Source of the DNA: Anaerolineales bacterium
GTDB taxonomy: Bacteria; Chloroflexota; Anaerolineae; Anaerolineales; E44-bin32
DNA: 64,000 nucleotides
NCBI GenBank assembly: GCA_036397095.1
Contig: DASWJQ010000099.1
Location: 11,728-75,727 of the forward strand
Direction of reading: 5' to 3'
Numbering within the stretch: the stretch's first letter is position 1; each line of letters begins with the position of its first letter. Under the pieces are notes generated by a model. The model ran no database searches and was not told the DNA's origin. It worked only from the letters and a program-made list of their open reading frames with translations. Made by a program: the position numbers and the translations under genes. This document shows, piece by piece, positions 6,789 through 28,862 of this stretch.

Positions 6789-8324
6789 TTACTGGCTGAG
6801 TGTGACCGTCCGCAAATCGGAGCGGCCGGGGAAGGCCTTCATTTCGAAACCATCCACGTGCTCCCGGGCGGCGCCCAACTGCGGGAAAAAGAACGGAATC
6901 AGGATTGGCCCGCGCTCGATCAGAATTCGCTGGATTTCATAATAGGCCTGAACCTGCTCGTCCTGATCGGTTGTGGTGCCGGCGATCTGCGCCCAACGGT
7001 CGAACTCATCATCGCAGAAATGCGCTTCGTTCCACATGGCGCCGCACACCATCATCACATCGAGATAGAACTGCGGATAGGGGCGTGAACCCCATCCCGT
7101 AATGCCAAAGGTGGCCTCGAGCCACCCGTTTTCGCCGTAGTAAACTCCCTCCGGCTCAACCGAGACTTCAATGTCGAAACCGGCTTCGGACAGCTGCTCC
7201 TTGAGCACGACCGCCAGGTCGGGGAAGTTCTGGGCTTCCGGCAGCCGCAACGTCAGCGCCAGGCCTTCATCGTAGCCGGCATCCGCCAGCAACTGACGCG
7301 CTGCCTCGAGGTCCCGCTCGGGCAAAGGGATCTCCTCGGTGTAGAGGTCCGGATAGAGCGGCCCGACCGGCGTATCGCGGCCCATTGCCCCCATCCCCTG
7401 CTGAACCAGCTCCAGGATCGCCGGGCGATCGATCGCTAGCCGCATGGCCTGCATCACGCGTGGGTCGTCGCCGGGCGGCTCGTCGGCCCGCAGCCGAACC
7501 ACCGGAAAGGCATTGGTGGCGACATCAAAGCGGTCGATGCCCGCCTCAGCCTCCAGGCTCTGGTACAGCGGCGTCGGCAGCTGCATCACAATATCCACCT
7601 GCCCGGTGCGCAATGCGTCGACCGCTGCCGCTCGGTCCTGGAAAACGATGTAGATTAGGTTGGCAACTCCCGGCTGGCCTTCGATGAAGTAGTCTGGATT
7701 GGCTGCTAGCTCGATCCGATCCTCGGGGCTGAAGTTGACCACCCGGAACGGACCACTGCCGTTGAAATCGCTTGCATCTTCCGTGCCAGCCTTCACGATC
7801 AGTGCATGGTTGTCGCTTAGATCGAACAAGAAAAATGGATTGGTCGTTTGCAGGCTGAAGGTCACCTCGTATTCACCGGTCGCTTCCACCGAGACCACGT
7901 TGGCGTACAGATCGACCGTAGCGAAGCCCGAATCTGGAGCCCGCAATCGATTGAAAGTATAGACCACGTCCTCAGCAGTCAGCGCCGAGCCATCGTGGAA
8001 GGAGGCGTTCTCGGTCAACTGAAATGTATAGGTGAGCCCGTCTTGGTTGATCTGCCAACTGGTGGCCAGCCGAGGTGCGATCTGATTGGAGGCATCGACG
8101 TCGACCAGATAGTCATATACGGCATTGGCCAAGCTTACTTCGGCATCCGAAGAGATCAGGGCCGGGTCGGTTTGAACGATCGGGTCGTAGCCGATGCGCA
8201 GCGTGGATTCGGAGGCTGGCACCGCGCCACCGCCACAGGCGCTTAGAAGCAACCCGGCCAACATGACGATTGTCAGCACAAACGGCAGACCCCGCTGCTC
8301 GGGTCTGAGGCTCTCCTTAGGCAT
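6789..8324 (-). CDS. Family-5 (peptide/nickel) ABC substrate-binding lipoprotein
   Basis: The start was trimmed to ATG 8324, preceded by AGGAGGAG. The lipoprotein signal is LLLSAC-GGG. The overall sequence resembles DppA/NikA-type binding proteins. Confidence 0.9.
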   Translation of the reverse strand: MPKESLRPEQRGLPFVLTIVMLAGLLLSACGGGAVPASESTLRIGYDPIVQTDPALISSDAEVSLANAVYDYLVDVDASNQIAPRLATSWQINQDGLTYTFQLTENASFHDGSALTAEDVVYTFNRLRAPDSGFATVDLYANVVSVEATGEYEVTFSLQTTNPFFLFDLSDNHALIVKAGTEDASDFNGSGPFRVVNFSPEDRIELAANPDYFIEGQPGVANLIYIVFQDRAAAVDALRTGQVDIVMQLPTPLYQSLEAEAGIDRFDVATNAFPVVRLRADEPPGDDPRVMQAMRLAIDRPAILELVQQGMGAMGRDTPVGPLYPDLYTEEIPLPERDLEAARQLLADAGYDEGLALTLRLPEAQNFPDLAVVLKEQLSEAGFDIEVSVEPEGVYYGENGWLEATFGITGWGSRPYPQFYLDVMMVCGAMWNEAHFCDDEFDRWAQIAGTTTDQDEQVQAYYEIQRILIERGPILIPFFFPQLGAAREHVDGFEMKAFPGRSDLRTVTLSQ

Positions 8325-8611
8325 GCTTGCTCCTCCTGCTTGCGGCAGTGCAGCTTGTCGTTCGTGGGTTGTTGAGCGTCCCCTCAAAGCCATTGAACCT
8401 GCTCTCCCCGAGCCCACATCGGCCAGGGGCCGGGCATTCCTCCGTGGGGCCCTCCGGCGGGTCCCATCATGACGCGTAATTCTTACCAAGTTCTTCAACA
8501 GCGCTTACCAGTTGTCGGATATTTTCGCTCAAATTGCGGGTAAAACTTGGCTGGAGGCGAAGCGCTCCGAGCATACCGTAGCAGTCAGCACCTTGGACGT
8601 GAAGTGGATGG

Positions 8612-9409
8612 TCAGTCTTGCCGGCTGAAGAGCCACACGCCTGGGATTAAGAAAAGGAGCGACAGCCCCGCCATTAGCGCAACATTGACAGCGATCGGCC
8701 GCAGGGCAACCTGCTCCAGCGCCGGGCTGGTCATCGCCCCGCGCAGGACTACCTGGCGCAACGGATCGACACCATAGGTAACCGGATCGATCGAGGCCAA
8801 TACCTCCATCCAAACCGGAATTCCGCGCAGGGGGAAGAAGGCGCCTGACAGGAAGAACATCGGCAGCAGCACGAAGTTCATCATCATGTGGAAGCCCTCC
8901 ATCGACCGCTGGCGGGCGGCAATGAGCAGGCCCAGCGAGGTCATCATGAGCGCCAGCAGAAGCAGGATCCCAATGATCTGAATGATCTGAAACCAGCCAA
9001 GTTGGATGCCAAGCAGCGGTGCCAGCACCAGTATGATCACGCCCTGCAGAAGGGCGATGCTGCTGCCACCGGCAACCTTGCCCGCCGCCACCGCGGTCCG
9101 CTCGACCGGGGCCACCATCACCTCTTTGAGAAAGCCAAACTCCCGGTCCCACACGACCGAGACTGCCGAAAAGACGCCGGTGAAGAGTACCGTCATCGCC
9201 AGAATCCCGGGGAAAAGGAACTGGGAGTAGTTGACCTGCCCTTGACCCAGACCCGAAATGGCCGCCGAAAAGCCGCCGCCAAACAGGACCAGGAAGAGCA
9301 GCGGTTGACCTAGCGAGGCAATGAGCCGGGCTCGGTCGCGCTGGTAGCGCAGGATGTCGCGCAGCCAGATGGTATAGGCACCGCGCAGCCAACCCATGAT
9401 CGCCTCCAT
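8612..9409 (-). CDS. ABC-2 type exporter permease
   Basis: 265 aa, six predicted TM segments, directly downstream of a DrrA-like ATPase gene. Confidence 0.85.
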   Translation of the reverse strand: MEAIMGWLRGAYTIWLRDILRYQRDRARLIASLGQPLLFLVLFGGGFSAAISGLGQGQVNYSQFLFPGILAMTVLFTGVFSAVSVVWDREFGFLKEVMVAPVERTAVAAGKVAGGSSIALLQGVIILVLAPLLGIQLGWFQIIQIIGILLLLALMMTSLGLLIAARQRSMEGFHMMMNFVLLPMFFLSGAFFPLRGIPVWMEVLASIDPVTYGVDPLRQVVLRGAMTSPALEQVALRPIAVNVALMAGLSLLFLIPGVWLFSRQD

Positions 9410-12461: not shown

Positions 12462-13121
12462 ATGACGAACGAACAGGTTGAGCGCCGCTCGTGCGCCCGC
12501 ATACCGACTGCCCATGGGGATTTCGAGCTTTGCCTGTATTCCTGTGGCGATGAAGCCAAAGACCATCTGGCCATGGTCTATGGTCAACTTGACGGCTCGG
12601 CGCAGGTGTTGGTTCGCGTCCATTCGGAGTGCTTCACGGGTGACGTGATGGGTTCCCAGCGCTGTGATTGTGGGGCTCAGTTTGAGCGCTCGATGGCGCT
12701 GATTGCCGAGTCCGGCGCAGGCATCATCCTGTACTTGCGTCAGGAAGGGCGGGGGATCGGGCTGTTGGACAAGTTGCGGGCGTACAACCTGCAGGATGAG
12801 GGCTACGACACGGTGGATGCCAACCTGCTATTGGGCCACGAGCCGGACGAGCGCGACTACCGGGTGGCGGCCGCCATCCTGAAGGACCTCGGTGTGCGCA
12901 GCATTCGACTGATCACCAACAACCCCAACAAGATCGACCAGCTGCAAGCGTATGGCATTGCCGTCGAGGCCCGTGTTCCTCTTGTCATCCCGGCCACTAC
13001 GGAGAATGCAACCTACTTGCGGGCCAAATCGAGCCGGCTCAATCACATCCTCGACCTCGATGGATCGGCCGACGATTCCGAACCCAGCGAGATCGCCCGC
13101 CGCAATGGCCGGCGAGCTTGA
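12462..13121 (+). CDS. ribA: GTP cyclohydrolase II (stand-alone, not fused to DHBP synthase)
   Basis: RVHSECFTGDVMGSQRCDCG is the zinc site. LYLRQEGRGIGLLDKLRAYNLQDEGYDTVDAN and LITNNPNK also match. The start was trimmed to ATG 12462, with GAGG upstream. Confidence 0.9.
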   Translation: MTNEQVERRSCARIPTAHGDFELCLYSCGDEAKDHLAMVYGQLDGSAQVLVRVHSECFTGDVMGSQRCDCGAQFERSMALIAESGAGIILYLRQEGRGIGLLDKLRAYNLQDEGYDTVDANLLLGHEPDERDYRVAAAILKDLGVRSIRLITNNPNKIDQLQAYGIAVEARVPLVIPATTENATYLRAKSSRLNHILDLDGSADDSEPSEIARRNGRRA

Positions 13122-13809
13122 TTCGCTCTACCGCCACCTGGAAGCATCCCCGGTTCCGGCCGATCGGCCGCTCGTTACGCTGGCGTTCGCCCAGAGCCTG
13201 GATGGCAGCATTGCCGCCGCCCCCGGCCGCCGGACGGTGCTCAGCAGCCAGCCGTCACTGGCGATGACCCACCGATTGCGCGCCATGCACGACGGAATCC
13301 TGGTCGGGATTGGTACGGTGCTGTCCGACGATCCGCAGCTGAACGTACGTTACGCGACCGGACCACATCCGCGGCCGGTGATATTGGATAGCCGGCTGCG
13401 CACGCCGCCCAAGGCCCGACTGCTCTCGGAGGATCCTTTCCCATGGATCGCTCACCACGATGGCAATGACGCCAACAGTGCCCCGCTCGAACACGCCGGT
13501 GCCATCCTGCTCCGGCTACCATCCAATGTTGAGGGCGGGCTGGACCTGATAGCCGTCCTGGACGAGCTTCGACTCCGTGGCGTGCGGCGCCTGATGGTCG
13601 AGGGCGGCAGCCGCGTCATCCGATCCTTCTTGCGCGAACGGCTGGTTGACACCTTGGTACTCACCATCGCACCGCGGCTGCTTGGCGGCCTGCAGCCCTG
13701 GATCGGGTTCGCACTTGCCGGCGACCCGCCTGTCCTGACCACACCAGCCTGGGCACAGGTGGGACCTGACATGCTCGTCTGGAGTCCGCTGAACTGGAGC
13801 GTGACGTGA
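13105..13809 (+). CDS. RibD C-terminal-type (DHFR-fold) pyrimidine reductase; no deaminase domain
   Basis: LAFAQSLDGSIA...HDGILVGIGTVLSDDPQLNVR...LMVEGGSRVIRSFL. The start was trimmed to ATG 13105 and overlaps the ribA end by 17 nt. Confidence 0.8.
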   Translation: MAGELDSLYRHLEASPVPADRPLVTLAFAQSLDGSIAAAPGRRTVLSSQPSLAMTHRLRAMHDGILVGIGTVLSDDPQLNVRYATGPHPRPVILDSRLRTPPKARLLSEDPFPWIAHHDGNDANSAPLEHAGAILLRLPSNVEGGLDLIAVLDELRLRGVRRLMVEGGSRVIRSFLRERLVDTLVLTIAPRLLGGLQPWIGFALAGDPPVLTTPAWAQVGPDMLVWSPLNWSVT

Positions 13810-14834
13810 AGACCCAGTCCTTGTGGATCGTCGAGCCCGGGCGGGCTGAAGTGCGTGAAGAAGAACTGCCGACGCTGACCCCCGGCGCGGTGCTGCTCGA
13901 GGCGCACGTCAGCGCCATTAGCCCCGGCACGGAACGCCTCATGTTCCACGGAAACGCTGGCCAGCAGGCACAGCTCGACGCCACTCTCCCGAGTCTGCAG
14001 GATTTGGCGGGCTACCCGATGAAGTACGGCTATGCCACCGTCGGCCGCATTGTTGAATTGGGACAGGAGGTCGATCGGAGTCTGCTCGACCGTTGGGCGC
14101 TGGCGCTGCACCCGCACCAAGCCCACCTGGCGTGCCCGGCCGAGGACCTGGTCCTGCTGCCGGCTGGCATCGACAGCGAAGCGGCCGCCTTTCTGCCCAA
14201 CGTCGAAACCAGTCTGTCCTTGGTCCATGATGGCCGGCCATTGGCCGGGGAGCGCGTCCTTGTGCTGGGTCTGGGCGTGGTGGGTCAATTGACGGCAATG
14301 TTGCTTGGCCAGTTCCCACTGGCCGATCTGGTGGCCGTCGAACCACTGGCCAACCGGCGACAATTGGCTGTGACCCGTCGGCTGACAGCGGTCGCCAGCT
14401 TTGAAGAGATCCTGGACCGGCTGTCTCCCGATCAGGCGCCAGGCTTCGACATGGCCTTCGAACTTTCGGGCAATCCACAGGCCCTGACGGCAGCCATCAA
14501 CGCTGTTGGCTATGATGGCCGCGTGGTTATCGGCTCATGGTACGGCGATCGGATGACGCCAGTGGCCCTCGGCACTCACTTCCATCGCAATCACATCCGT
14601 CTGATCAGCAGTCAGGTGAGCCGTATCCCACCCGCCCTGCGCGGGCTCTGGACCAAAGCCCGGCGCTTTGGCGAAGCGATCCGGCTGCTGCCGGCCTTAC
14701 GACCGGCCGAGTTGATCACGCACCGCCTGCCGCTGGCCGAAGCCCCCGATGCCTACGCATTGCTCGATCACCCGTCTGAAGCCGTCGGGATCCTAATCCT
14801 GTACCCGCCAGCCGCCACCAACGGACACGCCTGA
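13806..14834 (+). CDS. MDR-superfamily dehydrogenase, BchC-like subgroup
   Basis: SAISPGTERLMFHG...GYPMKYGYATVGRIVELG and the Rossmann motif VLGLGVVGQL. The GTG start overlaps the upstream stop (GTGA). Confidence 0.8.
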   Translation: MKTQSLWIVEPGRAEVREEELPTLTPGAVLLEAHVSAISPGTERLMFHGNAGQQAQLDATLPSLQDLAGYPMKYGYATVGRIVELGQEVDRSLLDRWALALHPHQAHLACPAEDLVLLPAGIDSEAAAFLPNVETSLSLVHDGRPLAGERVLVLGLGVVGQLTAMLLGQFPLADLVAVEPLANRRQLAVTRRLTAVASFEEILDRLSPDQAPGFDMAFELSGNPQALTAAINAVGYDGRVVIGSWYGDRMTPVALGTHFHRNHIRLISSQVSRIPPALRGLWTKARRFGEAIRLLPALRPAELITHRLPLAEAPDAYALLDHPSEAVGILILYPPAATNGHA

Positions 14835-15223
14835 TGTATTGCCTGCAGCTTGCGCGTCGCTTCCGAGCCGAGCATTTCCTCTTCGGCGGCGACTGGGGCG
14901 AGGAGAACCGGCCACATACTCATGACTACCGGCTGGAACTGCGCCTGCACGGACCGGAACTCAACCAGCACGGTTATCTGCTCGACTTGCTCGAAGTGGA
15001 GGCGTTGCTCGAAAGGGTGATTGAGCAGTTTGCCGGCCGTCAGCTCAACCAACTCGAGCCGTTTGCCGACCTTAACCCAAGCATCGAGCACTTCGCCCGC
15101 ATCCTGGCCTCCGAGCTGGGCAAGGGGTTGCCGCTAGACAACCGTCTTGCTCGCCTCGAAGTGCGCCTTTGGGAAACCGAAACCGCATGGGCCAGCTACC
15201 AATGCGAGCTGCCGTGCAGGTAG
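14834..15223 (+). CDS. 6-pyruvoyl-tetrahydropterin synthase / QueD family protein
   Basis: 129 aa. The zinc His triad is AEH...HTH. Glu occupies the position of the QueD catalytic Cys (E-NRP-HTH versus C-xxx-HGH). The start shares 1 nt with the upstream stop (TGATG). Confidence 0.85.
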   Translation: MYCLQLARRFRAEHFLFGGDWGEENRPHTHDYRLELRLHGPELNQHGYLLDLLEVEALLERVIEQFAGRQLNQLEPFADLNPSIEHFARILASELGKGLPLDNRLARLEVRLWETETAWASYQCELPCR

Positions 15224-16323
15224 CCCTCGTGGTTTGCGGCTCGCTGGACACCGTGTCCGGCGGCTTCCTCTACGATCGCCAGCTGGTGAGTGGTTTGCGC
15301 CGGCTCGGCCACCGGGTGGAGGTCGTCGAGCTGCCCTGGCGCAGCTACCCCGGACAACTGGCCGACGGCCTGAGGCCGCAGATCGTGCGGCAATTGACGC
15401 ATCTCGAAGCCGACATCGTGCTCCAGGATGAACTGTGCCATCCGTCCCTGCTCGTGGCCAATCGGTGGCCCGGGCACAGGCCTCCCATCGTGGCCATTGT
15501 CCATCACCTGCGGTCCGACGAGCGCGCCCCTGCCCTGCAGCGGCTCGCCTTTCGCTGGGCCGAACGGGCATTCCTGGCGTCGGTTGATGCCTGTGTATTC
15601 AACACGCGGGCGACGCAGGACTCGGTCGAGCGCCTGCTGGGCCGCCCGATGACCGGCGTGGTCGCCAGCCCGGCCGGTGACCACCTGGCCGGCTTTGGCC
15701 GGCCCGCGCCACCGGCATCTGCCAACCGAGGTGGGCCACTGCGCCTGCTCTTCGTCGGCAACTTGATTCCCCGCAAAGGGCTCGACACCCTGCTGACCGC
15801 CCTTGAGAGTCTCCCACCTGGCAGTTGGCAGCTGGATGTTGTCGGCCGCACCGATCTGGATACCGGCTACAGCGCCCGCCTGCTTCGGCAATTGAGCTCT
15901 CCTGGCTGGCGAGAAGCGGTCAGGTTGTGGGGACCGTTGATGGATGTGGCCCTTGCCGATCGCTACCGGCAGGCAAATCTGCTGGTGGTGCCGTCAGAGT
16001 ACGAAGGCTTCGGCATCGTCTACCTGGAGGCTATGGGCCATGGCCTTCCGGTCATTGCCAGCCGGGCGGGCGGCGCCTCCGAACTTGTCGAGCATGGCGT
16101 GCATGGGTTCCTGGTGCCACCCCGCGATCCAGCCGCCATTCGCCAACATCTGCAAACCTATCTGGCGCAGCCGAGTCTGATCAACCGGCAGGGAGCTGCT
16201 GCACTCGATCGCGCCCGCAGCCACCCGACCTGGTCGCGCTCGGTGGCCCTGGTCGAGGGCCTGTTGCAGCGGCTGGCGGCGGACCCCGTCGGCGCGATCT
16301 CATCGCCGCTCATGGATTTCTGA
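15202..16323 (+). CDS. GT4-family (group 1) glycosyltransferase
   Basis: N-terminal GGF-type motif (SGGFLYDRQL). C-terminal motif SEYEGFGIVYLEAMGHGLPVIAS...E. The start was trimmed to ATG 15202 and overlaps the PTPS gene by 22 nt. Confidence 0.85.
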   Translation: MRAAVQVALVVCGSLDTVSGGFLYDRQLVSGLRRLGHRVEVVELPWRSYPGQLADGLRPQIVRQLTHLEADIVLQDELCHPSLLVANRWPGHRPPIVAIVHHLRSDERAPALQRLAFRWAERAFLASVDACVFNTRATQDSVERLLGRPMTGVVASPAGDHLAGFGRPAPPASANRGGPLRLLFVGNLIPRKGLDTLLTALESLPPGSWQLDVVGRTDLDTGYSARLLRQLSSPGWREAVRLWGPLMDVALADRYRQANLLVVPSEYEGFGIVYLEAMGHGLPVIASRAGGASELVEHGVHGFLVPPRDPAAIRQHLQTYLAQPSLINRQGAAALDRARSHPTWSRSVALVEGLLQRLAADPVGAISSPLMDF

Positions 16324-16350
16324 GTCGTTTTGGAGAAGGAGTAGAGCAAG

Positions 16351-16743
16351 ATGCGATCTACCCTGCGCACCGTGATCATCATCACCACCTTGATCACCGC
16401 CCTCGTTCACCTGGCCGTGCTCAATTACCTGATATACACCAGCGAAGGCCACCTGGACTTGCTGTTTAGCTTGAACGGTCTGGGCTACCTGACCCTGCTC
16501 GGTATGTTCGTTGCCGCCCCGGCCTTCATCGAGGAGCAATGGGATTTCTTCCACTTCATGTACATGGGTTTCGCCGCAGTCACCATCGCGGCCTTCTTTG
16601 TTCTGGGTGGGACCGGGTTCGGCGGGACCGAAGTCGACCCGCTGGGCTACTTCACCAAAGCGGTGGAACTGATCCTGATCATCGCTTTATGGCAGCACCG
16701 CAAGTTTGACCCCGGCTTGCGCCAAACCGCTGGTCCGATGTAG
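16351..16743 (+). CDS. Small integral membrane protein (about 4 TM), function unknown
   Basis: 130 aa, hydrophobic helices. GGAG RBS 27 nt after the GT stop. I recognise no family. Confidence 0.6.
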   Translation: MRSTLRTVIIITTLITALVHLAVLNYLIYTSEGHLDLLFSLNGLGYLTLLGMFVAAPAFIEEQWDFFHFMYMGFAAVTIAAFFVLGGTGFGGTEVDPLGYFTKAVELILIIALWQHRKFDPGLRQTAGPM

Positions 16744-16790
16744 ACGACAGGGCGGGCGCGCCTCCCACAGGGCGCGCCCGCCATCCACCC

Positions 16791-17705
16791 ATGTTCGGCC
16801 CGGAAACGCTGCAGCGCGATATCGCGTACTTGGCCGCCAAACGGTCGATCGACGACCTGGCGCTCAACCACCATGTGTGGCAGACCCTTTGGAGTCAGCC
16901 GCTGCCCGAGTCTCCCCGGATTCTCGAGGCCGGCGCCGGCATCGGCACCATGCTGGAGCGCTTGCTTGAGCAAGATCGCCTGCGCACGGGTCATTACCTG
17001 GCCATCGATCAACAGCCAGCCTTCCTGGCAGAGGCCAGGGCCCGTCACCTGCGCTGGGGTGAGCAGCATGGGCTGTCCACCGAATTCGACCTGCAACGCC
17101 TGCATTTGCGCAGCGAGCAGGTCGACCTGGAGATCACCTACCTACAGACCGACCTCGCCGAGCTTTCCGCCGCCGTACCGGCAGGCTCAATCGATCTACT
17201 GTTGGGCCACGCTTTGCTCGACCTGGTCGACCTGGCCAGCAGTCTGCCCGGGCTGCTGGGCTGCCTGACACCCGCCGGACTCTTCCATTTCAGCCTGAAC
17301 TTTGACGGCGTGACCAGCTTCCAGCCGGAGGTCGATCCGGAACTCGATCGCCGGATCGCTGAGCTCTACCACACGTCAATGGATGAACGGCGGGTAGGGG
17401 GCCTGGCTTCAGGCGATAGCCGGACCGGGCGCCGCCTGCTGGGTTGGTTGGTCGACAACGATCAGGAGCTCCTGGCGGCCGGCGGCTCGGATTGGGTCGT
17501 TCACCCGCGTGATCATGCCTTTGCGTCTGATGAACGCATACTGCTCGAGACCATCTTGATGACGATCGAGCGCCAGCTGCAGGGCCATCCTGCGCTCGAC
17601 GCGACGGCCTTCTCGACCTGGCTCGCGACGCGCCGGACTCAACTGGCCGAAGGCCGCCTCGTGTTCCTGACCCACCAGCTCGATGTCGTCGGCCGGCGGC
17701 GCTAA
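16791..17705 (+). CDS. Class I SAM-dependent methyltransferase
   Basis: Motif I ILEAGAGIGTMLERL and a post-I acidic residue (YLAIDQQ). 304 aa. Confidence 0.75.
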   Translation: MFGPETLQRDIAYLAAKRSIDDLALNHHVWQTLWSQPLPESPRILEAGAGIGTMLERLLEQDRLRTGHYLAIDQQPAFLAEARARHLRWGEQHGLSTEFDLQRLHLRSEQVDLEITYLQTDLAELSAAVPAGSIDLLLGHALLDLVDLASSLPGLLGCLTPAGLFHFSLNFDGVTSFQPEVDPELDRRIAELYHTSMDERRVGGLASGDSRTGRRLLGWLVDNDQELLAAGGSDWVVHPRDHAFASDERILLETILMTIERQLQGHPALDATAFSTWLATRRTQLAEGRLVFLTHQLDVVGRRR

Positions 17706-18808
17706 TGTCGCTCGAGCAACAGCGCGCCTGCAACCAACCCGCTCCCCCCAAACAACAAATCACGGCCGCGAATCACAAGGGCCAGTGCCAGACCGGCCTC
17801 GGCTGGAAAGCCTAACTGGCCAAGCGCCAGCACCTGGCTCGCCTCCAAGGTTCCGAGGCCAGCTGGCAACGGAAGCAGGATCGCCACGCGGGCAGCCGTC
17901 AGCACGGCGACCGCCTCCAGTGGATCGAGCGAAAACCCTAGGAAGCCGGCCATCAACCAGTATTCGAAGACCAACAGGACCCAGGTGGTCAGGGAGGCTA
18001 ACAGTGCTCCAACCAGCCAGCCGGGCCGTCGGGCGAAAACGGAGCCGGCCGAGCTCTCCACCTCGGCCAACCACGCCTGCCACTTCTCCCAGCCAGGCAA
18101 GGCTTGAGCCCGCCGGGGCAACCAGCCCAGCAGCCAGCGCAATGGCTGGCCCCCGCGCGCGGCCGCCAGTAGGTAGGCCAGCGGCAGGCACACCAGGCCG
18201 CCCGCCACCAGAATCATCCCGGCGACAAGCGGCGTTTCGAGCAGGCCCAGCTGGGCCACAACCAGCAGACCGAACAACAGGAAGCTGAAATTTACGACCA
18301 GTTCGAGTGCCTTGTCCAGCGCGACGGAAGCCGCTCCTTGCGAGGCCGGCAGGTCATGCCGCTGACGCAGTAACTGGACCAACAGCGGCTCACCACCAAA
18401 CTGGGGTCCTGGCGTGAAGTAGCTGACGGCAAACCCGGCCAGGCGGTAGAGCGACAGCCAGCCGTAGACCACAACTACCTGTTGCGCCCGCAGTACCAGC
18501 CACCAGCGGCTGCTGAGGGCCAGCAGCACCCCAGCGTTGACCACCAGAATCAGGCCCATTTCCACGGGATGCAGCCCGGACAACAGCGCCGCCAGGTTCG
18601 CCCAATCGACGCCCCGCAGGGCGAGCGCCAGCAGCACGACAACCAGCAACCACAAGATGGCGCGCAGCCAAGGTCGTTGGGGGCGGCCCGCAGAATCAAC
18701 TTGGTGCGGCGAGGAGGCCCCCGACCCGCCCGTCATGAGCAACTCGACCCGGCCCCGATGGCCCTGTGGACCGGGCGGCAGCCTGTCAGGTTGACCGGGG
18801 TTGGCCAT
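17702..18808 (-). CDS. Flippase-like membrane protein (MprF / lysyl-PG synthase TM-region family, UPF0104)
   Basis: Multi-TM. The N-terminal region LALALRGVDWANLAALLSGL...LLALSSRWWLVLR is typical of the family. The start is uncertain: ATG 18808, 18736 or 18877. Confidence 0.7.
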   Translation of the reverse strand: MANPGQPDRLPPGPQGHRGRVELLMTGGSGASSPHQVDSAGRPQRPWLRAILWLLVVVLLALALRGVDWANLAALLSGLHPVEMGLILVVNAGVLLALSSRWWLVLRAQQVVVVYGWLSLYRLAGFAVSYFTPGPQFGGEPLLVQLLRQRHDLPASQGAASVALDKALELVVNFSFLLFGLLVVAQLGLLETPLVAGMILVAGGLVCLPLAYLLAAARGGQPLRWLLGWLPRRAQALPGWEKWQAWLAEVESSAGSVFARRPGWLVGALLASLTTWVLLVFEYWLMAGFLGFSLDPLEAVAVLTAARVAILLPLPAGLGTLEASQVLALGQLGFPAEAGLALALVIRGRDLLFGGSGLVAGALLLERH

Positions 18809-20021
18809 GCTCACCTGCACGATTGGCAAACAACTTCTCGCTGGGACTCCAGATGGAGTAGCGTCCGCTGCCGGCAATCAAGATACCGAGCGTAGCCGTC
18901 AGGCCAATCGTGCGCCAGGGATCGAGGCCGACGGCGGCAATGGTCAGGCCCAGCGGGAAGAGCATGACAAAGGCGGCAAAGCGGGCGGCGTAGCCCAGCA
19001 GCATAGCGGTGCCTGTCAGCACAACCAGCCCGCCAAAGAAAGTGGAGACAGCCGGCGCCGGTACAAGGCCCAAGGACCCAAGTCCCCTCACCAGTTCGGG
19101 CGAGCCCGCCAGGTAGCGCGGCGCCTGGGCAAGCGCAAAACCGGCGATCGCCAGGCGCAAGATCACCGGCATCAATCGCAGGACGATCTTGCGCAATCGG
19201 GAGCGCCAGCGCAGGTACGCCGCCGATCTGGGATCGAGGCTGTCGCTCACCACCAGCGCATCCCTGACGAAGCCAGCCATGAAAGGCGTGAAGAAGATCC
19301 AACCGGCCAGGGCGAGCTCGGGCCGGTCGAAGATCGGCCACAGCGTCACCGAAATGAACCCCATCGTCAGGCCCGCCAGCGGACGGCGGAGGCCGCTAGG
19401 TGACAACGGTTGCACCCGCAGACCAGCCCGCTGCCGGATCCAGATCAGGACGGCAAAGGCATAGCGGGCCAGCCCGACCGTCAGGAAGATCGCCGGCAGC
19501 CGGCCATAGCCTATCGCCAAGTTGACGGCAGCGAAGACGCCGAGGGCGTCCAACTCAAGGTCGAGTGCTTCCCCCAGCGCCGATTGCTGGCGGCTCTTCC
19601 GGGCCAGGTAGCCATCGAAATAATCGAATACATCGGCCAGGGTATACCAGGCCATAGGAAGCCAGGCGGCCAGGCCATCAGCAGGGGGTGCCAACAGGCA
19701 GCCTGCCAGCGCCGCAATCAGCCAGCCCCGGGCCAACGTCAGCAGGTTGCCCGGCCCCAGCCGCTCGGCAACCGGGCCGCCTGGGTCCGGGCGGTGCAGG
19801 CGCAGATTCCTTCCTGTGAACCACCACAGGTAGAGCCAAACCGAGCCGGCCAGCCAGGGCCAGTGGGCAGGAACCGCCGCAGCCGGCCCCCACCATCGGT
19901 GCGCGGCGGCCAGCAACGCCAGGCCGGCTACCCCCAGCGACAGCCATTGCCGGCGCAGCCCAGCCGGCGCAGCCTGATCGACCTCGGTTTGCCCGCGTTG
20001 AGCAGGCAGATGTTGTGTCAT
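18786..20021 (-). CDS. CDP-alcohol phosphatidyltransferase with an additional C-terminal multi-TM domain
   Basis: DVFDYFDGYLARKSRQQSALGEALDLELDALG matches D-x2-DG-x2-AR...G-x3-D-x3-D. An extra hydrophobic C-terminal region of about 150 aa follows. Confidence 0.8.
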   Translation of the reverse strand: MTQHLPAQRGQTEVDQAAPAGLRRQWLSLGVAGLALLAAAHRWWGPAAAVPAHWPWLAGSVWLYLWWFTGRNLRLHRPDPGGPVAERLGPGNLLTLARGWLIAALAGCLLAPPADGLAAWLPMAWYTLADVFDYFDGYLARKSRQQSALGEALDLELDALGVFAAVNLAIGYGRLPAIFLTVGLARYAFAVLIWIRQRAGLRVQPLSPSGLRRPLAGLTMGFISVTLWPIFDRPELALAGWIFFTPFMAGFVRDALVVSDSLDPRSAAYLRWRSRLRKIVLRLMPVILRLAIAGFALAQAPRYLAGSPELVRGLGSLGLVPAPAVSTFFGGLVVLTGTAMLLGYAARFAAFVMLFPLGLTIAAVGLDPWRTIGLTATLGILIAGSGRYSIWSPSEKLFANRAGEHGQPRST

Positions 20022-21906: not shown

Positions 21907-23277
21907 TCAGGCCCGTGGTTCCTGCCCAGCCTCGACCATGCGGCGGGCTGCCCGGCGGCCGATCTCGACGGCGAAATTCGTGCCTCGGTCCCAGGGATAG
22001 ACCTGGCTCATGCTGGCCAACCACAAGCCTTCGATCGGCGTGGCCAACGGCGGAATACTCTCCGAATGATTGACCGGCGGCACCGGCTGGGCATAGGGTG
22101 TTCGGAATAGCCAGGAATCGCGCACCCAACCCGGTTCGAAGGCGCTATTGAAACGCGGCAGCGCCTCGAAAAACCTGGCCTCCAACTCCGGCTGGGTCAA
22201 CGAGAAGTACTCGTGGTCGGGATCCAGGTAGTCCCCGCAGTACACAATGTGATCACCGCCGAAGAACTCGGGCGACAGGTAGTTCGTGTGTTCGACCAGG
22301 GCCAAAAACGGGAACCCGGCTTGCTTGGGCAAGTTATGCCAGTAGATCCCCTGCTCAGACAGGCGCTGGCGCAACGCCAGGATCAACACCACCGCCCCCA
22401 TCGATTTGAGCGACAGCAGCCGCTCCAAATAGCTGGCTGGCAGGCTGGGCGCCATGCGCGCCAACAAGGCAGGCGAGGTTGTCACCAAACACTGGTCGGC
22501 CTGCAGCGGGCCGGACTCTGCCTGAATCATGAGTCCGCCGTCGTTGCGCTCAATACGCTGGACAGGCGTCCGGTAGCGCAGGTCCACTCCCATCGAAAGC
22601 AATCGCTCCGCCAGGTCATCGGCAAAGGCCTGGAACCCACCTTCGTATGTGCCAAGCCGGGGCGTACGCGCCTTGACCCGCGCCCAGAACCAGGCCATGT
22701 TGACCTGTTCGTAGTGCGGGCCAAACTTGCCTTCAAGCAGCGGTTTCCACATGACCTCATAGGCCTTGTCCCCCATCTTGGCCCGCAGCCAGCGATCGGC
22801 CGTGTGCTGCTCCAGCGGCTGCCAGTTGCGGGTCAGCGTCAAGTAGAAGCCGACCAGTCCAGACCGCAGCCGCGCCGTCAGGGGCAGGCCAGGGAACGTC
22901 AAGACCCTGGCGGCCCGGGCCAGCATGCCGGCGGCGGGCAGGCGGTTGACCCATTTGCCGAGCGGCAACAGACTCGCAAGCGGTGCGTCCATTGGGTAGA
23001 ACTTGCCCTGGTGGTAGACGGCCGTCGTGGGCCAGGGGAAAAAGACTCGATCAGACCAACCGAGTTCGTCGATCAGCCCCAAGATATGACGATCGCTGGC
23101 AAACCAGTGGTGGTAGTAGCGCTCGACCGACCAGTCCCAGCGCGGCAGCTTGAATCCGGCGGCCAGCCCCCCGGGGTGATCGGCGGCCTCCAAGACGACG
23201 ACGCGCTTGCCGGCGCGCACCAGGTCGTAAGCCGCCGCCAGGCCACCAATGCCGGCACCAACGACGGCAACGGTCAT
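21907..23277 (-). CDS. FAD-dependent oxidoreductase (amine oxidase / CrtI / protoporphyrinogen oxidase superfamily)
   Basis: VAVVGAGIGGLAAAYDL...VLEAADHPGG is a dinucleotide fold. The start ATG 23277 forms an ATGA overlap with the upstream gene. Confidence 0.85.
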   Translation of the reverse strand: MTVAVVGAGIGGLAAAYDLVRAGKRVVVLEAADHPGGLAAGFKLPRWDWSVERYYHHWFASDRHILGLIDELGWSDRVFFPWPTTAVYHQGKFYPMDAPLASLLPLGKWVNRLPAAGMLARAARVLTFPGLPLTARLRSGLVGFYLTLTRNWQPLEQHTADRWLRAKMGDKAYEVMWKPLLEGKFGPHYEQVNMAWFWARVKARTPRLGTYEGGFQAFADDLAERLLSMGVDLRYRTPVQRIERNDGGLMIQAESGPLQADQCLVTTSPALLARMAPSLPASYLERLLSLKSMGAVVLILALRQRLSEQGIYWHNLPKQAGFPFLALVEHTNYLSPEFFGGDHIVYCGDYLDPDHEYFSLTQPELEARFFEALPRFNSAFEPGWVRDSWLFRTPYAQPVPPVNHSESIPPLATPIEGLWLASMSQVYPWDRGTNFAVEIGRRAARRMVEAGQEPRA

Positions 23278-24320
23278 GCCCCGGCCTCTTGCGCTATTTC
23301 GTGCTGGACGCGATCCCAACTCAGACTTTGGCGGGCCATGTAATACGCCCCCAGCAATGTGATGGGCAGCCAGAGGGCAGCATGCAGAACCAGGGTGTAT
23401 CCGGCGGCCAACGGCCCAGCAACGCCGTAGGCCTCGAGCACGGCAATCCCAGGCGCGTCAAAGGTGCCAACATAGCCCGGCGCCGACGGGATAGTTGTCG
23501 CCAGATTCACAATTCCGTTCATCAGCATTAGGGCAAAGAATGACACATCGAAGGGGAACGCCTGCATCACAAGCCAGTATTTGCCGGTCTCCAGCAGCCA
23601 GATAACGGTCGAGGTTGCCAACACCATGGCCACATCAGCCGGGGACCGCAGGGAAGACAGGCCATCGACAAAGCGTTCGATCAGACCCATGGCATTCGAT
23701 CGGAGAGAAATCGGCAGCAGCCGTTCAAGCAGCCAGGATGCGACCCGCAGCACAGGCTGGGGGAAAATCGCCATCAGCAAGAACACGAGTACGGCGGCGC
23801 CAAAGGCTGCCGTCCCCCACAGCGCGACCGTCTGGATGCCGCCGGCAAAGGTGGTACCGGCGGTCACCCGCGCCAGCTCCGGCAGGTTCACGAAGACGAA
23901 GGCCAGCATGACTACCCCGTCGAAGGCTCGTTCAACCACAATGGTGGCCAGCGAGGCCGAGATCGGGATTTGCCGCTGGCGCCGCAGCACGTAGGCGCGC
24001 AACAATTCGCCCGCCCGCGCCGGGTAGATGTTATTGCCCATGTAGCCAATGGCGACAATCGGGAACATCTCGCTAGTGGGGACGGCCTGCAGGGGGCGCA
24101 GCAAATAGTGCCAGCGCCAGGCTCGGGCCCAGACGGCCAACATATATGCCCCCACGCCCGGGATCAGCCAGACGTAGTTAGCGCCCTTGACTGCCCGCCA
24201 GACCTCCCCCAGTTGAAGACCGCGCAGCGCCAGCCAAAGGAACAGGGCGCTGATGACCACGCCTAGCCAGAACTGCCAGCGTTTCAATCGGCCTCCAAAC
24301 GAAAGGCGGGGCCGCTTCAC
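23274..24320 (-). CDS. Flippase-like membrane protein (MprF TM-region family, UPF0104), second paralog
   Basis: 348 aa, multi-TM. WLALRGLQLGEVWRAVKGANYVWL...RWHYLLRP...GNNIYPARAGELLRAYVL is family-typical. Confidence 0.8.
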   Translation of the reverse strand: MKRPRLSFGGRLKRWQFWLGVVISALFLWLALRGLQLGEVWRAVKGANYVWLIPGVGAYMLAVWARAWRWHYLLRPLQAVPTSEMFPIVAIGYMGNNIYPARAGELLRAYVLRRQRQIPISASLATIVVERAFDGVVMLAFVFVNLPELARVTAGTTFAGGIQTVALWGTAAFGAAVLVFLLMAIFPQPVLRVASWLLERLLPISLRSNAMGLIERFVDGLSSLRSPADVAMVLATSTVIWLLETGKYWLVMQAFPFDVSFFALMLMNGIVNLATTIPSAPGYVGTFDAPGIAVLEAYGVAGPLAAGYTLVLHAALWLPITLLGAYYMARQSLSWDRVQHEIAQEAGA

Positions 24321-24878: not shown

Positions 24879-26980
24879 TCAGGTCTCTAGAACTGGCGAA
24901 TCGAAAAATCGGGATACGGATGCCGGATCCGAACCCTTGACCAGCAGGGTGACCCGGTCATGGCCAAGCAGGCGCGTGTCGCCATGCGGCAATTGCACCT
25001 CGCCGGCCCGCTCGATGCTGACAACCACACAATCGCGCGGCAGACCGAGCCGAGCCAGTTGCTGGCCGGCCGCTGGCGAATCGTCGTCTACCAGCACCAC
25101 GACCAGCTCAGCGTCCGGCTTGGGATCGATCGCTGCCATCAACTTGCCTGGCCGGCGGCGGACGGTGCCGATTTCGTAGGCGCGAATGACGTCATTGCGG
25201 CGCACGATCCCAACCAAATGTGTGGGGTCCCCCGGGCGCCACGACGGGCAGACGGGACAAATCGCGCGGCGCCATGCGCTCCATGGCCAGCCGGACAGTC
25301 TCGCCGGGAAGGGCGGTGACCAGATGCCGGGTAGCGATGTCGCCCACGGTTAGATCCGGCGCCAGCTGCTCATCCGGCCCGGCGCGGCGCAGATCGCTCA
25401 AGGACACAATCCCGACCAGTTTGCCGCTTGCTTGCACGACGGGGTAGGCGTGGCTGTTGGTCGCGAGAAAGCGCGCCGCCAACTCGCTGGCGGGCATGTC
25501 CGGCGGCACGGTCAATGCCGGCGGCCGCATGACCTCGTCCACCCGGACCGAATCCATCACATCGACGTCGCGGCCGCGCACCACGCGGATCCCGCGCCGG
25601 ACAAGCTTGAGCGTGTAGATCGACTCCGGATGAAGGTGCTGGGCAACGACGGTCGCCGTAATCACCGCTGCCATCAAGAGCAGAATAATTCGGTAATCAT
25701 CGGTCATTTCGAACACAATCAGGATGGCGGTCAAAGGCGCGCGCGCGGCCGCGCTAGAAGACGGCGGCCATGCCGACGGCGGCATACGGACCGGGGCCGG
25801 CGGCGATCGTCGGGAACAAACTGCTGGCCAACCAACCGAAAGCCCCGCCCAACATGGCGCCGGCGAACAGGCTAGGGGCGAAGACGCCGCCGGAATTGCC
25901 GGATCCAAGGGTAAAGGACGTGGCCAGCTATTTGAGAAACGCCAGGGCCAACAAGGTGCCAAAGACCAGCTCGCCGTTCAATCCGGCCTCGATCGTGGCA
26001 AAGCCGGCACCGAAGATGCTCGGCAGCTGCCGGCCTGCGCTGCCTGAAATTTCTCCCCCAGGCAGGCCATAGCCGATGGCCGGGACGAACGAGACCAGGG
26101 CCAGCGCCAGACCGCCCAGCAACAGGCCGCCGACGGCTGGTTTGAGGCTCAGTGGAAACCGGGTCCGGTCAAAAGCGTCCTCAAAGGCATACAACAGCCG
26201 AATAAAGGCCAATCCCAATCCGGCGGCCAGCAGGCCCAGCAGCAGGTAGAGCAGGATCTCCCACGGGCTCGTCAAACTGTACTCCGGAATGGCAAAAGCG
26301 GGACCGTCGCCGAGCACCGAGCGCGCCACTACACTGGCAATAACGGAGGCGATCACCACGCCGCCCAGATCACCAATCCGCAGTTCGCCCAGAACCACTT
26401 CGACAGCGAAAATCACGCCGGCAATTGGCGCGTTGAAGGTGGCGGCGATGCCGGCCGCCGCGCCGGCGGCAACCAGCATCCGAACCCGCTCCTCGGAGAA
26501 ACGCAGCAACTGGCCGACCGTTGAACCCAAAGCGGCGCCAACCTGGACGATGGGCCCTTCGCGGCCAGCAGAGCCGCCGCTGCCGATGCAGGCTGCCGAA
26601 GCCAGCAGCTTTGCCAGGGCGACACGGGGACGAATCCGGCCGCCTCGAAGGGCCATCGCTTCCATCACTTCGGGCACCCCGTGTCCCTGCGCCTCGCGCG
26701 CGAAGAAGGCTATGATCGGACCGGCCTGCAACCCGCCGATCACCGGCGCCAGGAGCAGCCAGCTCAGGCCCGGCAGGGGCACCAGAGCCGGAGCGCTGAT
26801 GAACAGCGTCCGTTCAACCAGGGCGATCAGGCCGATGAAAGCCAGGCCACCTACGGCTGTGCCGATGCCGACCAAGCCGGCCACGCCGAACATGACCGCC
26901 ATCTCCGACGGCAGCACCCGGTCAAGCTAGTTGGCCAGCAGTTTGGTTCGTTTGGGTGAGGGTAAGGTTTGCCGGTCCAC
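24879..26980 (-). pseudogene. ClC-type chloride/proton channel with C-terminal CBS pair and TrkA_C domain, disrupted by two in-frame TAG codons and two frameshifts
   Basis: Track ORFs 25928..26917, 25192..25962 and 24879..25217 are consecutive pieces of one ClC protein. Motifs present: GSGGSAGREGP, LGSGNSGGVFAPSLF, RAPLTAILIVFEMT, CBS, TrkA_C. Lesions: TAG at 26927-26929, TAG at 25928-25930, a 1-nt shift near 25754-25760, and a 1-nt shift in the C5 run 25229-25233. Confidence 0.8.
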
Positions 26981-27010: not shown

Positions 27011-27772
27011 TTAGGCGCCGCTGATCAGATCCGGCAATTGTCCGATGTTGGCGATCACCGGGCAGTCGGCCTCTTCAAAGAGACCCTTGGGATCAACCAG
27101 CACCGGATGCACCCCGGCCGCCCGGGCGCCGCCGACGTCGGCGTAGTAGTTGTCACCGATGTACATGGCGGCCTCGGGCGCTACCCCGGCCAGATCCAGC
27201 GCGTGCTGCAATAAGCGTGGATCCGGCTTCCAGTAGCCCACCTCACCGGCCGCCAGCGCGAATTCGAACTCGTCCGCCAGCCCAAGGTCACCGACCAGAT
27301 CATGCAGAGGACGGTCCCGGTTGGAGACCAGACCCAGCCTTAAACCTTGTTGGCGCAGCCGCTCGAGGCTGGGTATCACGTCCGGCGGCACCTTGTCCAC
27401 CGGTTTGTAGCGCTGGCGCATCGCCTCATTCAATTGGCGGGCCAGCGACTCTGCATCGGCCGGTTCGGCGCCAAGGCGCTCGACGTGACGCCGGGTGAAT
27501 TGCAGCCAAACGTAACCGCGGTCGTCGCCAGCAGCTTCGATGTCCTGGCGCAGGTTGGCCGAATTGGCCCAGTATTCGTGCGTCCAGCGCTCGGCCCGGC
27601 GGAGCGTGGCGGCATCGGGCCGCAATCCGTATTCGCCTGCCAACGCGTAGAAAATCTCCAGACCCGGCGGATCGTTGTGCCGCAACGTTCCGTCCAGATC
27701 GAAGATGATTAACTCGAGATTCGCCCAGCCGTTGCCGGAGGCCGGGCCGTTGGAGGCGGCTGGCGAATTCAT
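27011..27772 (-). CDS. HAD-superfamily hydrolase (phosphoglycolate phosphatase-like)
   Basis: IIFDLDGTL is motif I, GLVSN is motif II, and YIGDNYYADVGGARAAG is motif IV. The start was trimmed to ATG 27772 (ATGA overlap with the moaA stop). Confidence 0.85.
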   Translation of the reverse strand: MNSPAASNGPASGNGWANLELIIFDLDGTLRHNDPPGLEIFYALAGEYGLRPDAATLRRAERWTHEYWANSANLRQDIEAAGDDRGYVWLQFTRRHVERLGAEPADAESLARQLNEAMRQRYKPVDKVPPDVIPSLERLRQQGLRLGLVSNRDRPLHDLVGDLGLADEFEFALAAGEVGYWKPDPRLLQHALDLAGVAPEAAMYIGDNYYADVGGARAAGVHPVLVDPKGLFEEADCPVIANIGQLPDLISGA

Positions 27773-28779
27773 CCGCCGATGAAGTGCATTTCGACCTTGG
27801 GCAGGTCGGCCGTCTGAGCAGTGCGCTCTTCCGAATAGCGATCGGACCGCTTTCGCCAGATCGTGCTGATGGCCGCGATCAGGGATGGGTCGTCCACCTC
27901 CTGGCGCAGCAGCGCCCGCAGATCGTGGCCCTGGCTGGCAAACAGGCAGGTGTACAGTTTGCCATCGGCCGACAGGCGTACGCGTGAGCAGTCGCCGCAA
28001 AAGGGTTGGCTCACAGAGGCGATGATCCCGATTTCGCCGGCGCCGTCCAGGTAGCGGTAGCGGTTGGCCACCTCCCCACGGTAGTTCGGCTTAACCGGCT
28101 CGAGTGGGTAGACACGCTGAATCCTATCGACGATCTGGCGCGCCGGCACGACATCCTCCAGCTGCCAGCCGTTGGTGGTGCCGACATCCATGAATTCGAT
28201 GTAGCGCAGAATCTGGCCCGAATGGCGAAAACGCTCCGCCATCGGCAGGATCTGGTCTTCATTGATGCCACGTTTGACCACCATATTGACCTTGACCGGC
28301 TCAAGACCCGCCTTGACCGCCACGTCAATGGCACTGAGGATCGGTTCCACCTCAAAGCCTACGTCATTCATATCACGGAAGGTGCCGTCGTCCATCGCGT
28401 CCAGGCTGACCGACACTCGGTCGAGGCCGGCGGCCTTCAGGTCTCGAGCGTGTTTTGCCAGCAGGGTCCCGTTGGTCGTCATGGTCAATTCGTCGATGTT
28501 CGGGATTAGCGCGAGCCGCTCAATCAGGCCCAGCAGGCCCGGACGAAGGAGCGGCTCGCCGCCTGTCAACCGCAGCTTGCGCACCCCGAGGCTGGCGAAT
28601 AGCCGACTCAACCGCTCGATCTCATCGAACGAGAGCAGCTCTTGCTGACTCAGAAACTGGTAGCCGGGACCGAAGATTTCCTTGGGCATGCAGTAGGTGC
28701 AGCGGAAATTGCATCGGTCGGTTACCGAGATGCGCAGATCTTGGATTGGTCTTCCGAGGGTATCGTGTACCGGTTCCAT
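27769..28779 (-). CDS. moaA: GTP 3',8-cyclase (molybdenum cofactor biosynthesis protein A)
   Basis: LRISVTDRCNFRCTYCMP is the radical-SAM CxxxCxxC cluster, and the C-terminus contains FCGDCSRVRLSADGKLYTCLF. The start was trimmed to ATG 28779. Confidence 0.9.
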   Translation of the reverse strand: MEPVHDTLGRPIQDLRISVTDRCNFRCTYCMPKEIFGPGYQFLSQQELLSFDEIERLSRLFASLGVRKLRLTGGEPLLRPGLLGLIERLALIPNIDELTMTTNGTLLAKHARDLKAAGLDRVSVSLDAMDDGTFRDMNDVGFEVEPILSAIDVAVKAGLEPVKVNMVVKRGINEDQILPMAERFRHSGQILRYIEFMDVGTTNGWQLEDVVPARQIVDRIQRVYPLEPVKPNYRGEVANRYRYLDGAGEIGIIASVSQPFCGDCSRVRLSADGKLYTCLFASQGHDLRALLRQEVDDPSLIAAISTIWRKRSDRYSEERTAQTADLPKVEMHFIGG

Positions 28780-28862
28780 GTCCGTACCGCCCGAACCGAC
28801 GGAACCTACCAACAAAAGGCGGGCTTAGCCGCTCCGAACTTGATCCGTCGTGGGGTGTCTGC

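Follow-up and report, generated by a model that had tools for sequence, protein, structure and literature searches.

Positions 12462–20021 of a 64,000-nt stretch of metagenome-derived DNA from an Anaerolineales bacterium (contig DASWJQ010000099.1; the whole stretch is called the window below) carry nine genes whose products may constitute a branch of the riboflavin route. Departing after the second, archaeal-type step, this branch would lead to a glycosylated and methylated 2-amino-4-oxo-pyrimidine compound, likely a pterin, which many bacteria would attach to a membrane lipid, and to this reading of the nine genes as a whole, branch point included, we assign a probability of roughly 45%. The steps of GTP cyclohydrolase II (GCH II) and of a pyrimidine reductase of the RibD_C family are well-supported, while we infer all later chemistry, which involves a medium-chain dehydrogenase/reductase (MDR), a T-fold protein of the 6-pyruvoyltetrahydropterin synthase (PTPS) family, a family 4 glycosyltransferase (GT4), an S-adenosylmethionine (SAM)-dependent methyltransferase, a CDP-alcohol phosphatidyltransferase and a flippase-like LPG_synthase_TM protein. 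The ninth product is a small membrane protein of family DUF7475.

The gene cluster and its conservation

When 185,579 species genomes were scanned with an alignment of the MDR, the family, for which more than 2700 homologues were found, was detected in at least 594 species genomes from taxa including Chloroflexota, Gammaproteobacteria, Desulfomonile relatives, Actinobacteria, haloarchaea and Bathyarchaeia, with 45–50% identity between bacterial and archaeal members. Eighty genome loci, 35 of them with full flanks, and a further 80 loci from metagenomes were fetched, their open reading frames (ORFs) being called mechanically. The order GCH II–RibD_C–MDR–PTPS–GT4–methyltransferase recurs in Chloroflexota and Gammaproteobacteria (Methylomonas defluvii, M. 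fluvii, Pseudohongiellaceae) as well as in Desulfomonile-type deltaproteobacteria, Solirubrobacterales, Egibacteraceae and Thermoanaerobaculia, and is also listed for Bathyarchaeia, Methanosarcinales and Halobacteriales; its recurrence in both sets of 80 loci means that the arrangement is not due to chance. MDR, PTPS and GT4 form a near-universal core, the latter two each being present in 34 of the 35 fully flanked genome loci, and are joined by the methyltransferase in 25, a GTP cyclohydrolase in 21, RibD_C in 19, the LPG_synthase_TM protein in 19 and the CDP-alcohol transferase in 13 of these loci. The original prediction had regarded the seven genes from GCH II to the methyltransferase (12462–17705) as one operon. 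These genes do form a co-conserved unit distinct from riboflavin synthesis, but it had been drawn too small, and strict co-conservation applies to the core, while the methyltransferase, DUF7475, GCH II and RibD_C genes are frequent rather than universal.

Two genes which converge on the methyltransferase from the minus strand are co-conserved with the operon and belong to the system as well, which extends the unit to position 20021. The first encodes the flippase-like membrane protein (ORF 17702–18877; PF03706 3e-37; TIGR00374 above cutoff), with a likely start at the ATG at 18736 (344 aa) deduced from the 342-aa homologue in L002, a locus from a relative of 75% identity. The second encodes the 411-aa CDP-alcohol phosphatidyltransferase (18786–20021; PF01066 4e-15), which has an extra conserved C-terminal membrane region and is matched over residues 1–410, at 100% identity, by a 4.5-kb JGI contig. 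In a reciprocal test, metagenomes were scanned with an alignment of this transferase alone. Among the 17 resulting loci flanked on each side by 5 kb or more, MDR, PTPS and GT4 occur in 16, which argues that the transferase subfamily is dedicated to the system; the flippase-like gene adjoins in 15, and GCH II and RibD_C are found in 14. The placement of the lipid-type genes varies: in many Anaerolineae they precede the cluster in the same orientation, in the window they converge on it from downstream, and in Gammaproteobacteria they are inserted in opposite orientation between PTPS and GT4.

The plus-strand part of the cluster is compact. The ORF table and the junction sequences reproduce the layout proposed earlier, and the domain calls made then for all seven proteins are borne out by Pfam and NCBIfam profile searches. 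GCH II (12462–13121, 219 aa, PF00925 2e-66) overlaps the stand-alone reductase (13105–13809, 234 aa, PF01872 7e-42) by 17 nt, and the reductase overlaps the zinc-ligand-free MDR (13806–14834, 342 aa, weak ADH_zinc_N match) by 4 nt (GTGA). The MDR shares a single nucleotide (TGATG) with the PTPS gene (14834–15223, 129 aa, PF01242 3e-24, a non-canonical subfamily), which in turn overlaps GT4 (15202–16323, 373 aa, Glycos_transf_1 4e-32) by 22 nt. Gaps of 27 and 47 nt precede the DUF7475 gene (16351–16743, 130 aa, PF24287 5e-10) and the class I methyltransferase gene (16791–17705, 304 aa, Methyltransf_12/25), respectively. The 47-nt gap contains a GC-rich, perfect 13-bp hairpin (16751–16782, plus strand; RNA fold −32.3 kcal/mol, z = −4.9), and the same gap in L002 holds a 12-bp hairpin of other sequence (L002 12959–12986). 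The structure may serve in RNA processing, stability or attenuation within the operon. A promoter and terminator scan gave background level only, and Rfam detected neither an FMN riboswitch nor one of another class, whether in the window or ahead of the operon.

From GTP to a predicted ribitylamino intermediate

GCH II would open the pathway by converting GTP to 2,5-diamino-6-ribosylamino-4(3H)-pyrimidinone 5'-phosphate. With a score of 249 against the cutoff of 206 of TIGR00505 (RibA), the protein is placed among the GTP cyclohydrolases II, and it shares 49% identity with E. coli RibA. No variation was seen across 78 cluster-linked GCH II copies in the zinc ligands Cys54, Cys65 and Cys67 or in Tyr105, Arg128 and Lys154 (E. 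coli numbering), which extends the earlier observation of an intact zinc site to the family and leads one to expect the canonical product.

The reductase consists of RibD_C only, a deaminase domain being absent according to Pfam, in agreement with the original prediction. It scores 150.9 with TIGR00227 (cutoff 150.15) and is not a bifunctional RibD, as eubact_ribD reaches 97 against a cutoff of 156 and is matched along the C-terminal half of the model only. Its best PDB matches are the archaeal and fungal 2,5-diamino-6-ribosylamino-4(3H)-pyrimidinone 5'-phosphate reductases 6p8c (5e-25), 2azn and 4ha7, but in the corresponding model TIGR01508 it scores 119, below the cutoff of 186. GCH II and RibD_C are a single polypeptide in 18 loci from Chloroflexota and other groups (for example 8086–9402 of locus L039). 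The reductase would thus be predicted to act directly on the GCH II product, reducing it to the ribitylamino compound with the 2-amino group kept.

Bacteria deaminate first in the riboflavin route and, because of this order, need a dedicated reductase if the 2-amino group is to be kept. Archaea reduce before deaminating, and their normal pathway yields 2,5-diamino-6-ribitylamino-pyrimidinone phosphate; the absence of the RibD_C gene from the cluster in all six archaeal loci fetched fits this knowledge, since the housekeeping route already supplies the ribitylamino intermediate. GCH III takes the place of GCH II in both haloarchaeal genomes sampled, Desulfomonile-type clusters keep RibD_C without GCH II, and folE, sought in the clusters that lack GCH II, was not found there. 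GCH II is fused to the MDR at one locus of a euryarchaeal metagenome-assembled genome (MAG; L035 9266–11005). In Candidatus Leptofilum and a related Anaerolineae MAG (L039 9474–9923; L016) a 4HBT thioesterase gene stands between the GCH II–RibD_C fusion and the MDR; the upstream pair of L039 had been considered as ribBA–ribH, which is ruled out by the Pfam assignment to this fusion and the thioesterase.

The archaeal and fungal riboflavin and F420 pathways start with enzymes of the same two kinds (GCH II or GCH III, then ArfC/Rib7). The cluster could also be an alternative or housekeeping route to 5-amino-6-ribitylaminouracil, with the PTPS-like zinc enzyme as the missing pyrimidine deaminase. 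The taxa that carry the cluster overlap with F420 producers, and a 2016 review, citing unpublished work, considers PTPS-IV to be involved in F420 synthesis and the role of PTPS-V to be unclear (PMC5041015). Furthermore, deletion of arfA, the GCH III gene of Haloferax volcanii, causes riboflavin auxotrophy, which identifies arfA as a housekeeping gene (PMC8305020), and the GCH III genes of the two haloarchaeal clusters may be the housekeeping arfA of these genomes. We nevertheless regard this explanation as very improbable. It leaves the linked MDR, GT4, methyltransferase, phosphatidyltransferase and flippase, with which the cluster continues, without a role; the cluster protein is at most a candidate PTPS-IV; and bacteria already possess the RibD deaminase, so that a deaminase-less reductase is sensible only if the 2-amino group is kept. 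In addition, tblastn and blastp searches with E. coli queries (including RibB, RibH and RibC) detected neither homologues of ribB, ribH, ribE and folE nor another GCH II or RibD_C in the window, and not one of 164 loci had ribB, ribH, ribE or folE within 10 kb. The canonical operon, in which ribB, ribH, ribE and the deaminase are co-located, is therefore found neither in the window nor at these loci, as had been claimed for the immediate surroundings of the operon, and no FO-synthase-like neighbour recurs.

A secondary pathway that borrows enzymes of the GCH II and RibD type and ends in methylation is that of toxoflavin (ToxB GCH II, ToxE RibD, ToxA methyltransferase). ToxE, in contrast to the cluster reductase, has a deaminase domain, the toxoflavin cluster is devoid of PTPS, MDR, GT4 and lipid enzymes, and no relatives of ToxC or ToxD recur in the neighbourhoods analysed here.

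Candidate chemistry of the core enzymes

The MDR resembles the 3-hydroxyethyl bacteriochlorophyllide dehydrogenase BchC without being one: TIGR01202 is its best NCBIfam match but yields 70.5 bits against a cutoff of 291, and no photosynthesis genes recur in the cluster neighbourhoods. The serine of an invariant SAISPGTE motif and Tyr76 stand in for the Cys/His zinc ligands of MDR enzymes, and an acidic residue at the end of β2, following the GxGxxG motif, suggests use of NAD. Its AlphaFold2 (AF2) model, with a predicted local distance difference test (pLDDT) score of 82, resembles threonine, butanediol, sorbitol, xylitol, arabinitol and idonate dehydrogenases. A zinc-free, NAD-type polyol-dehydrogenase-like enzyme of this kind could re-oxidise the ribityl chain at one of its secondary hydroxyls. 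Were 2' the site, as we favour, the resulting Amadori-type ketone might close onto the 5-amino group to give a pterin similar to 7,8-dihydroneopterin-3'-phosphate, a type of compound that falls in the only substrate class known for PTPS-family enzymes. Formation of a pterin from the GCH II product has a precedent in Chlamydia, where RibA and TrpF give rise to dihydroneopterin monophosphate (PMC4161248). The Chlamydia bypass differs in that an Amadori isomerase is used and folate synthesis is fed. In the cluster, fusion of the reductase to GCH II suggests that a ring could close only after the MDR has re-oxidised the chain.

The PTPS-family protein would subsequently remodel the side chain of the pterin. 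It stays below the cutoffs of the QueD and 6PTHBS models (QueD 43 against 89) and is defined by the signature H14, GGDWGxEN, H28-x-H30 (H-S-H), LDxHGYLVD, NPSIEH and WE113-114. In the motif GGDWGxENxxH-S-H the invariant Glu24 occupies the position of the QueD cysteine, at −4, and no Cys is present. The Asp-His dyad is replaced as well, with the result that the Cys/Asp/His triad of the characterised subfamilies is absent, while the zinc histidines and the pterin-binding elements NPS.E and WE, including the pterin-binding Glu, are retained. Weak PDB matches are to PH0634 and to Streptomyces coelicolor SCO6650 (3d7j). The latter, matched at 1.4e-4, is likewise triad-less and shares the C-terminal E-x-x-AWASY, but it lacks one zinc histidine that the cluster family keeps. 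SCO6650 is linked to a nearby GCH II paralogue, SCO6655, which has Met in place of Tyr105; Tyr105 is, in contrast, kept in all 78 cluster GCH II copies. The published signatures of PTPS-II (CxxxxxHGH), QueD or PTPS-I (CxxxHGH) and PTPS-III (ExxHGH), each with an Asp-His dyad (PMC5041015), do not fit the motif of the cluster protein. Actinobacterial clusters carry a 192-aa protein between GCH II and MDR and a 124-aa protein after the MDR, at the usual place of PTPS; these two small proteins are Pfam-less (loci L004 and L058; L004 293–871 and 1868–2242).

GT4 would glycosylate a hydroxyl and the methyltransferase would methylate the product. The PDB matches of GT4 (SPS, MshA, BshA, BGluT, PimA/PimB) are all generic, and none of the MDR, PTPS, GT4, membrane protein and methyltransferase reaches a curated, specifically named NCBIfam. 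The DUF7475 protein, whose sequence shows four hydrophobic segments on inspection by eye, recurs beside the cluster in some Chloroflexota loci, with a DUF420 protein in a similar place in others.

These features also bear on whether a pterin ring is formed at all. The product could instead be an open or otherwise modified ribitylamino-diaminopyrimidine, such as an 8-ribityl-pteridine or a compound with a glycosylated ribityl chain, the polyol phosphate of which would serve as acceptor for GT4 and the phosphatidyltransferase much as inositol phosphate does for MshA and phosphatidylinositol-phosphate synthase. MshA, which acts on a polyol phosphate, is indeed among the best-characterised relatives of GT4, the fusion of reductase and GCH II makes the ribityl intermediate highly probable, and variant clusters encode a ComB-like phosphatase. 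We hold such a ring-free product to be distinctly unlikely, as the universal MDR would be left without an obvious role if the chain stayed fully reduced and the pterin-binding Glu and NPS.E motif are retained in the PTPS-family protein. All characterised enzymes of this family act on pterins (PMC5041015).

Possible lipid attachment, neighbouring genes and significance

In the CDP-alcohol phosphatidyltransferase the motif D(x)2DG(x)2AR(x)8G(x)3D(x)3D is intact, with D132, D135, G136, A139, R140, G149, D153 and D157 invariant, which assigns it to the family, though to no specific equivalog (pgsA 31 against a cutoff of 109). The neighbouring protein shares with MprF the flippase module, the LPG_synthase_TM domain, but consists of this domain only and is not an MprF (model score 19 against a cutoff of 600). 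A dedicated CDP-alcohol transferase beside a flippase-like protein suggests that the product is lipid-linked or exported, an option that the original prediction had not considered. The transferase of Chloroflexota and Gammaproteobacteria might join the molecule to a phosphatidyl group, before the LPG_synthase_TM protein moves it to the outer leaflet in a putative last step. A variant cluster of Chloroflexota, which is devoid of GCH II, RibD_C and the CDP-alcohol transferase, again points to a lipid context: upstream it carries genes for a PlsC-type acyltransferase, which may acylate the product instead, and a flippase-like protein, and in addition it encodes the ComB-like phosphatase between MDR and PTPS and a C92 papain-like amidase downstream. 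Among known pathways, phosphatidylinositol-mannoside synthesis (PgsA1, PimA, acyltransferase) shares the CDP-alcohol transferase, GT4 and, with the variant, the PlsC-type acyltransferase. The relationship is at family level only; the cluster would derive its head-group precursor from GTP and not from inositol.

On these grounds we tentatively propose, with somewhat less assurance than for the nine-gene pathway itself, a new class of membrane lipid with a GTP-derived, glycosylated and methylated pterin or ribitylaminopyrimidine head group, built by the CDP-alcohol transferase and flipped by the MprF-like protein. This lipid would be widespread in Chloroflexota and marine Gammaproteobacteria and have a soluble or differently anchored form in archaea.

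Alternatively, the product could be a soluble pterin glycoside similar to those of cyanobacteria and Chlorobium (biopterin glucoside, cyanopterin, tepidopterin), the lipid-type gene pair having a separate role in export or in adding a phosphodiester tail. The pathways of these glycosides (GCH I, PTPS, sepiapterin reductase, BGluT/PGT) share with the cluster the origin from GTP, a PTPS-family enzyme, an oxidoreductase, with the MDR as a possible substitute for sepiapterin reductase, and a GT-B glycosyltransferase, and methylated sugars are known in cyanopterin from the literature. The universal core comprises only GTP cyclohydrolase, MDR, PTPS-like protein and GT4, the six archaeal loci fetched and the deltaproteobacterial and actinobacterial clusters being free of lipid genes, and the tetrahydrobiopterin glucosyltransferases BGluT/PGT (5ze7, 9v0l), which have the GT4 fold, are among the PDB matches. 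We consider a soluble glycoside unlikely, if less so than a product without a pterin ring. The match to these glucosyltransferases is confined to the C-terminal residues 182–315 of GT4 and, at 4e-9 (BGluT) to 1e-7, ranks below SPS and MshA, so that the full-length similarity expected of a pteridine glycosyltransferase is missing. The cyanopterin and biopterin-glucoside pathways start from GCH I, not from GCH II and a reductase, and use PTPS-II with the Cys/Asp/His triad that is absent here as well as a short-chain dehydrogenase/reductase rather than an MDR. The acidic residue of the MDR suggests NAD and not the NADPH of sepiapterin reductases. Moreover, the cluster adds a phosphatidyltransferase and a flippase-like protein, the transferase subfamily occurs almost exclusively beside the cluster, and the variant cluster has its acyltransferase. 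The analogy with cyanopterin and biopterin glucoside put forward in the original prediction thus finds no support beyond generic GT4 similarity, whereas its statement that the gene set matches no nameable pathway is upheld, as no curated family places MDR, PTPS, GT4 or methyltransferase in a characterised pathway.

Several observations weigh against the proposed lipid-attached pterin. The phosphatidyltransferase and flippase genes are absent within about 9 kb in the six archaeal loci fetched and in the Desulfomonile-type and actinobacterial clusters, so that lipid attachment is not part of the universal core, and CDP-alcohol transferases can also yield soluble phosphodiesters. The site of action of the MDR, and even its direction, is an assumption, with some zinc-free MDRs being reductases. 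The PTPS-like protein is without the catalytic triad, and in actinobacterial loci no PTPS is recognisable by the family hidden Markov model. A path that reduces and then re-oxidises on the way to a pterin is more roundabout than that via GCH I. Finally, the AF2 model of the methyltransferase (pLDDT 94) retrieves generic class I methyltransferases only in Foldseek and is uninformative.

Beyond the cluster, the window contains on the minus strand a second LPG_synthase_TM gene (23274–24320), which overlaps the start of a gene for a protein similar to flavin amine oxidases and phytoene desaturases (21907–23319) by 46 nt. This pair (21907–24320), which matches no locus except L002, may form a lipid-modification module of its own. 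At a distance of about 8 kb from the cluster, a MoaA-type gene of the radical-SAM kind (Radical_SAM and Mob_synth_C; 27769–28815, minus strand) encodes a further pterin enzyme that consumes GTP, and a HAD hydrolase ORF (27011–28000) overlaps this gene; recurrent linkage of the MoaA-type gene to the cluster was not seen. A CLC chloride-channel gene (25192–26917, minus strand) appears to be split into two overlapping ORFs, one covering positions 1–249 of the Voltage_CLC profile and the next positions 308–346 together with the CBS domains, a pattern indicative of a frameshift, pseudogene or sequencing error. Apart from the close relative L002, no locus was seen in which the genes for Usp, the ABC transporter or the M29 peptidase recur beside the cluster. 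At other loci, a rhomboid protease gene is inserted between the methyltransferase and the DUF7475/flippase genes of L039 (13532–14296), with a 193-aa unannotated ORF as its counterpart in L016, while the POR subunits, ClpS, Mrr, DUF427, TsaE, aspartokinase and M32 encoded next to variant clusters are unrelated to the system.

All parts of the system belong to known enzyme families, and still there is a substantial chance that it builds a new class of lipid. At least about 600 species from two domains of life carry the gene set, and no published product was found for it; full-text literature searches, which included a June 2026 review of bacterial pterins, retrieved no paper that describes the cluster or its function. 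Its carriers are abundant environmental groups, namely Anaerolineae, marine Gammaproteobacteria, methanotrophs, Desulfomonile relatives, haloarchaea and Bathyarchaeia. If the proposed pathway is correct, GTP and riboflavin metabolism would have a new branch point at 2,5-diamino-6-ribitylaminopyrimidinone phosphate, and a role would be assigned to two orphan groups, a PTPS subfamily and a BchC-like MDR family. The lipid class, if it exists, would mean that a pterin can be made from GTP without GCH I, by reduction followed by re-oxidation, and the membrane lipids of these organisms would possibly carry a redox- or light-active head group.

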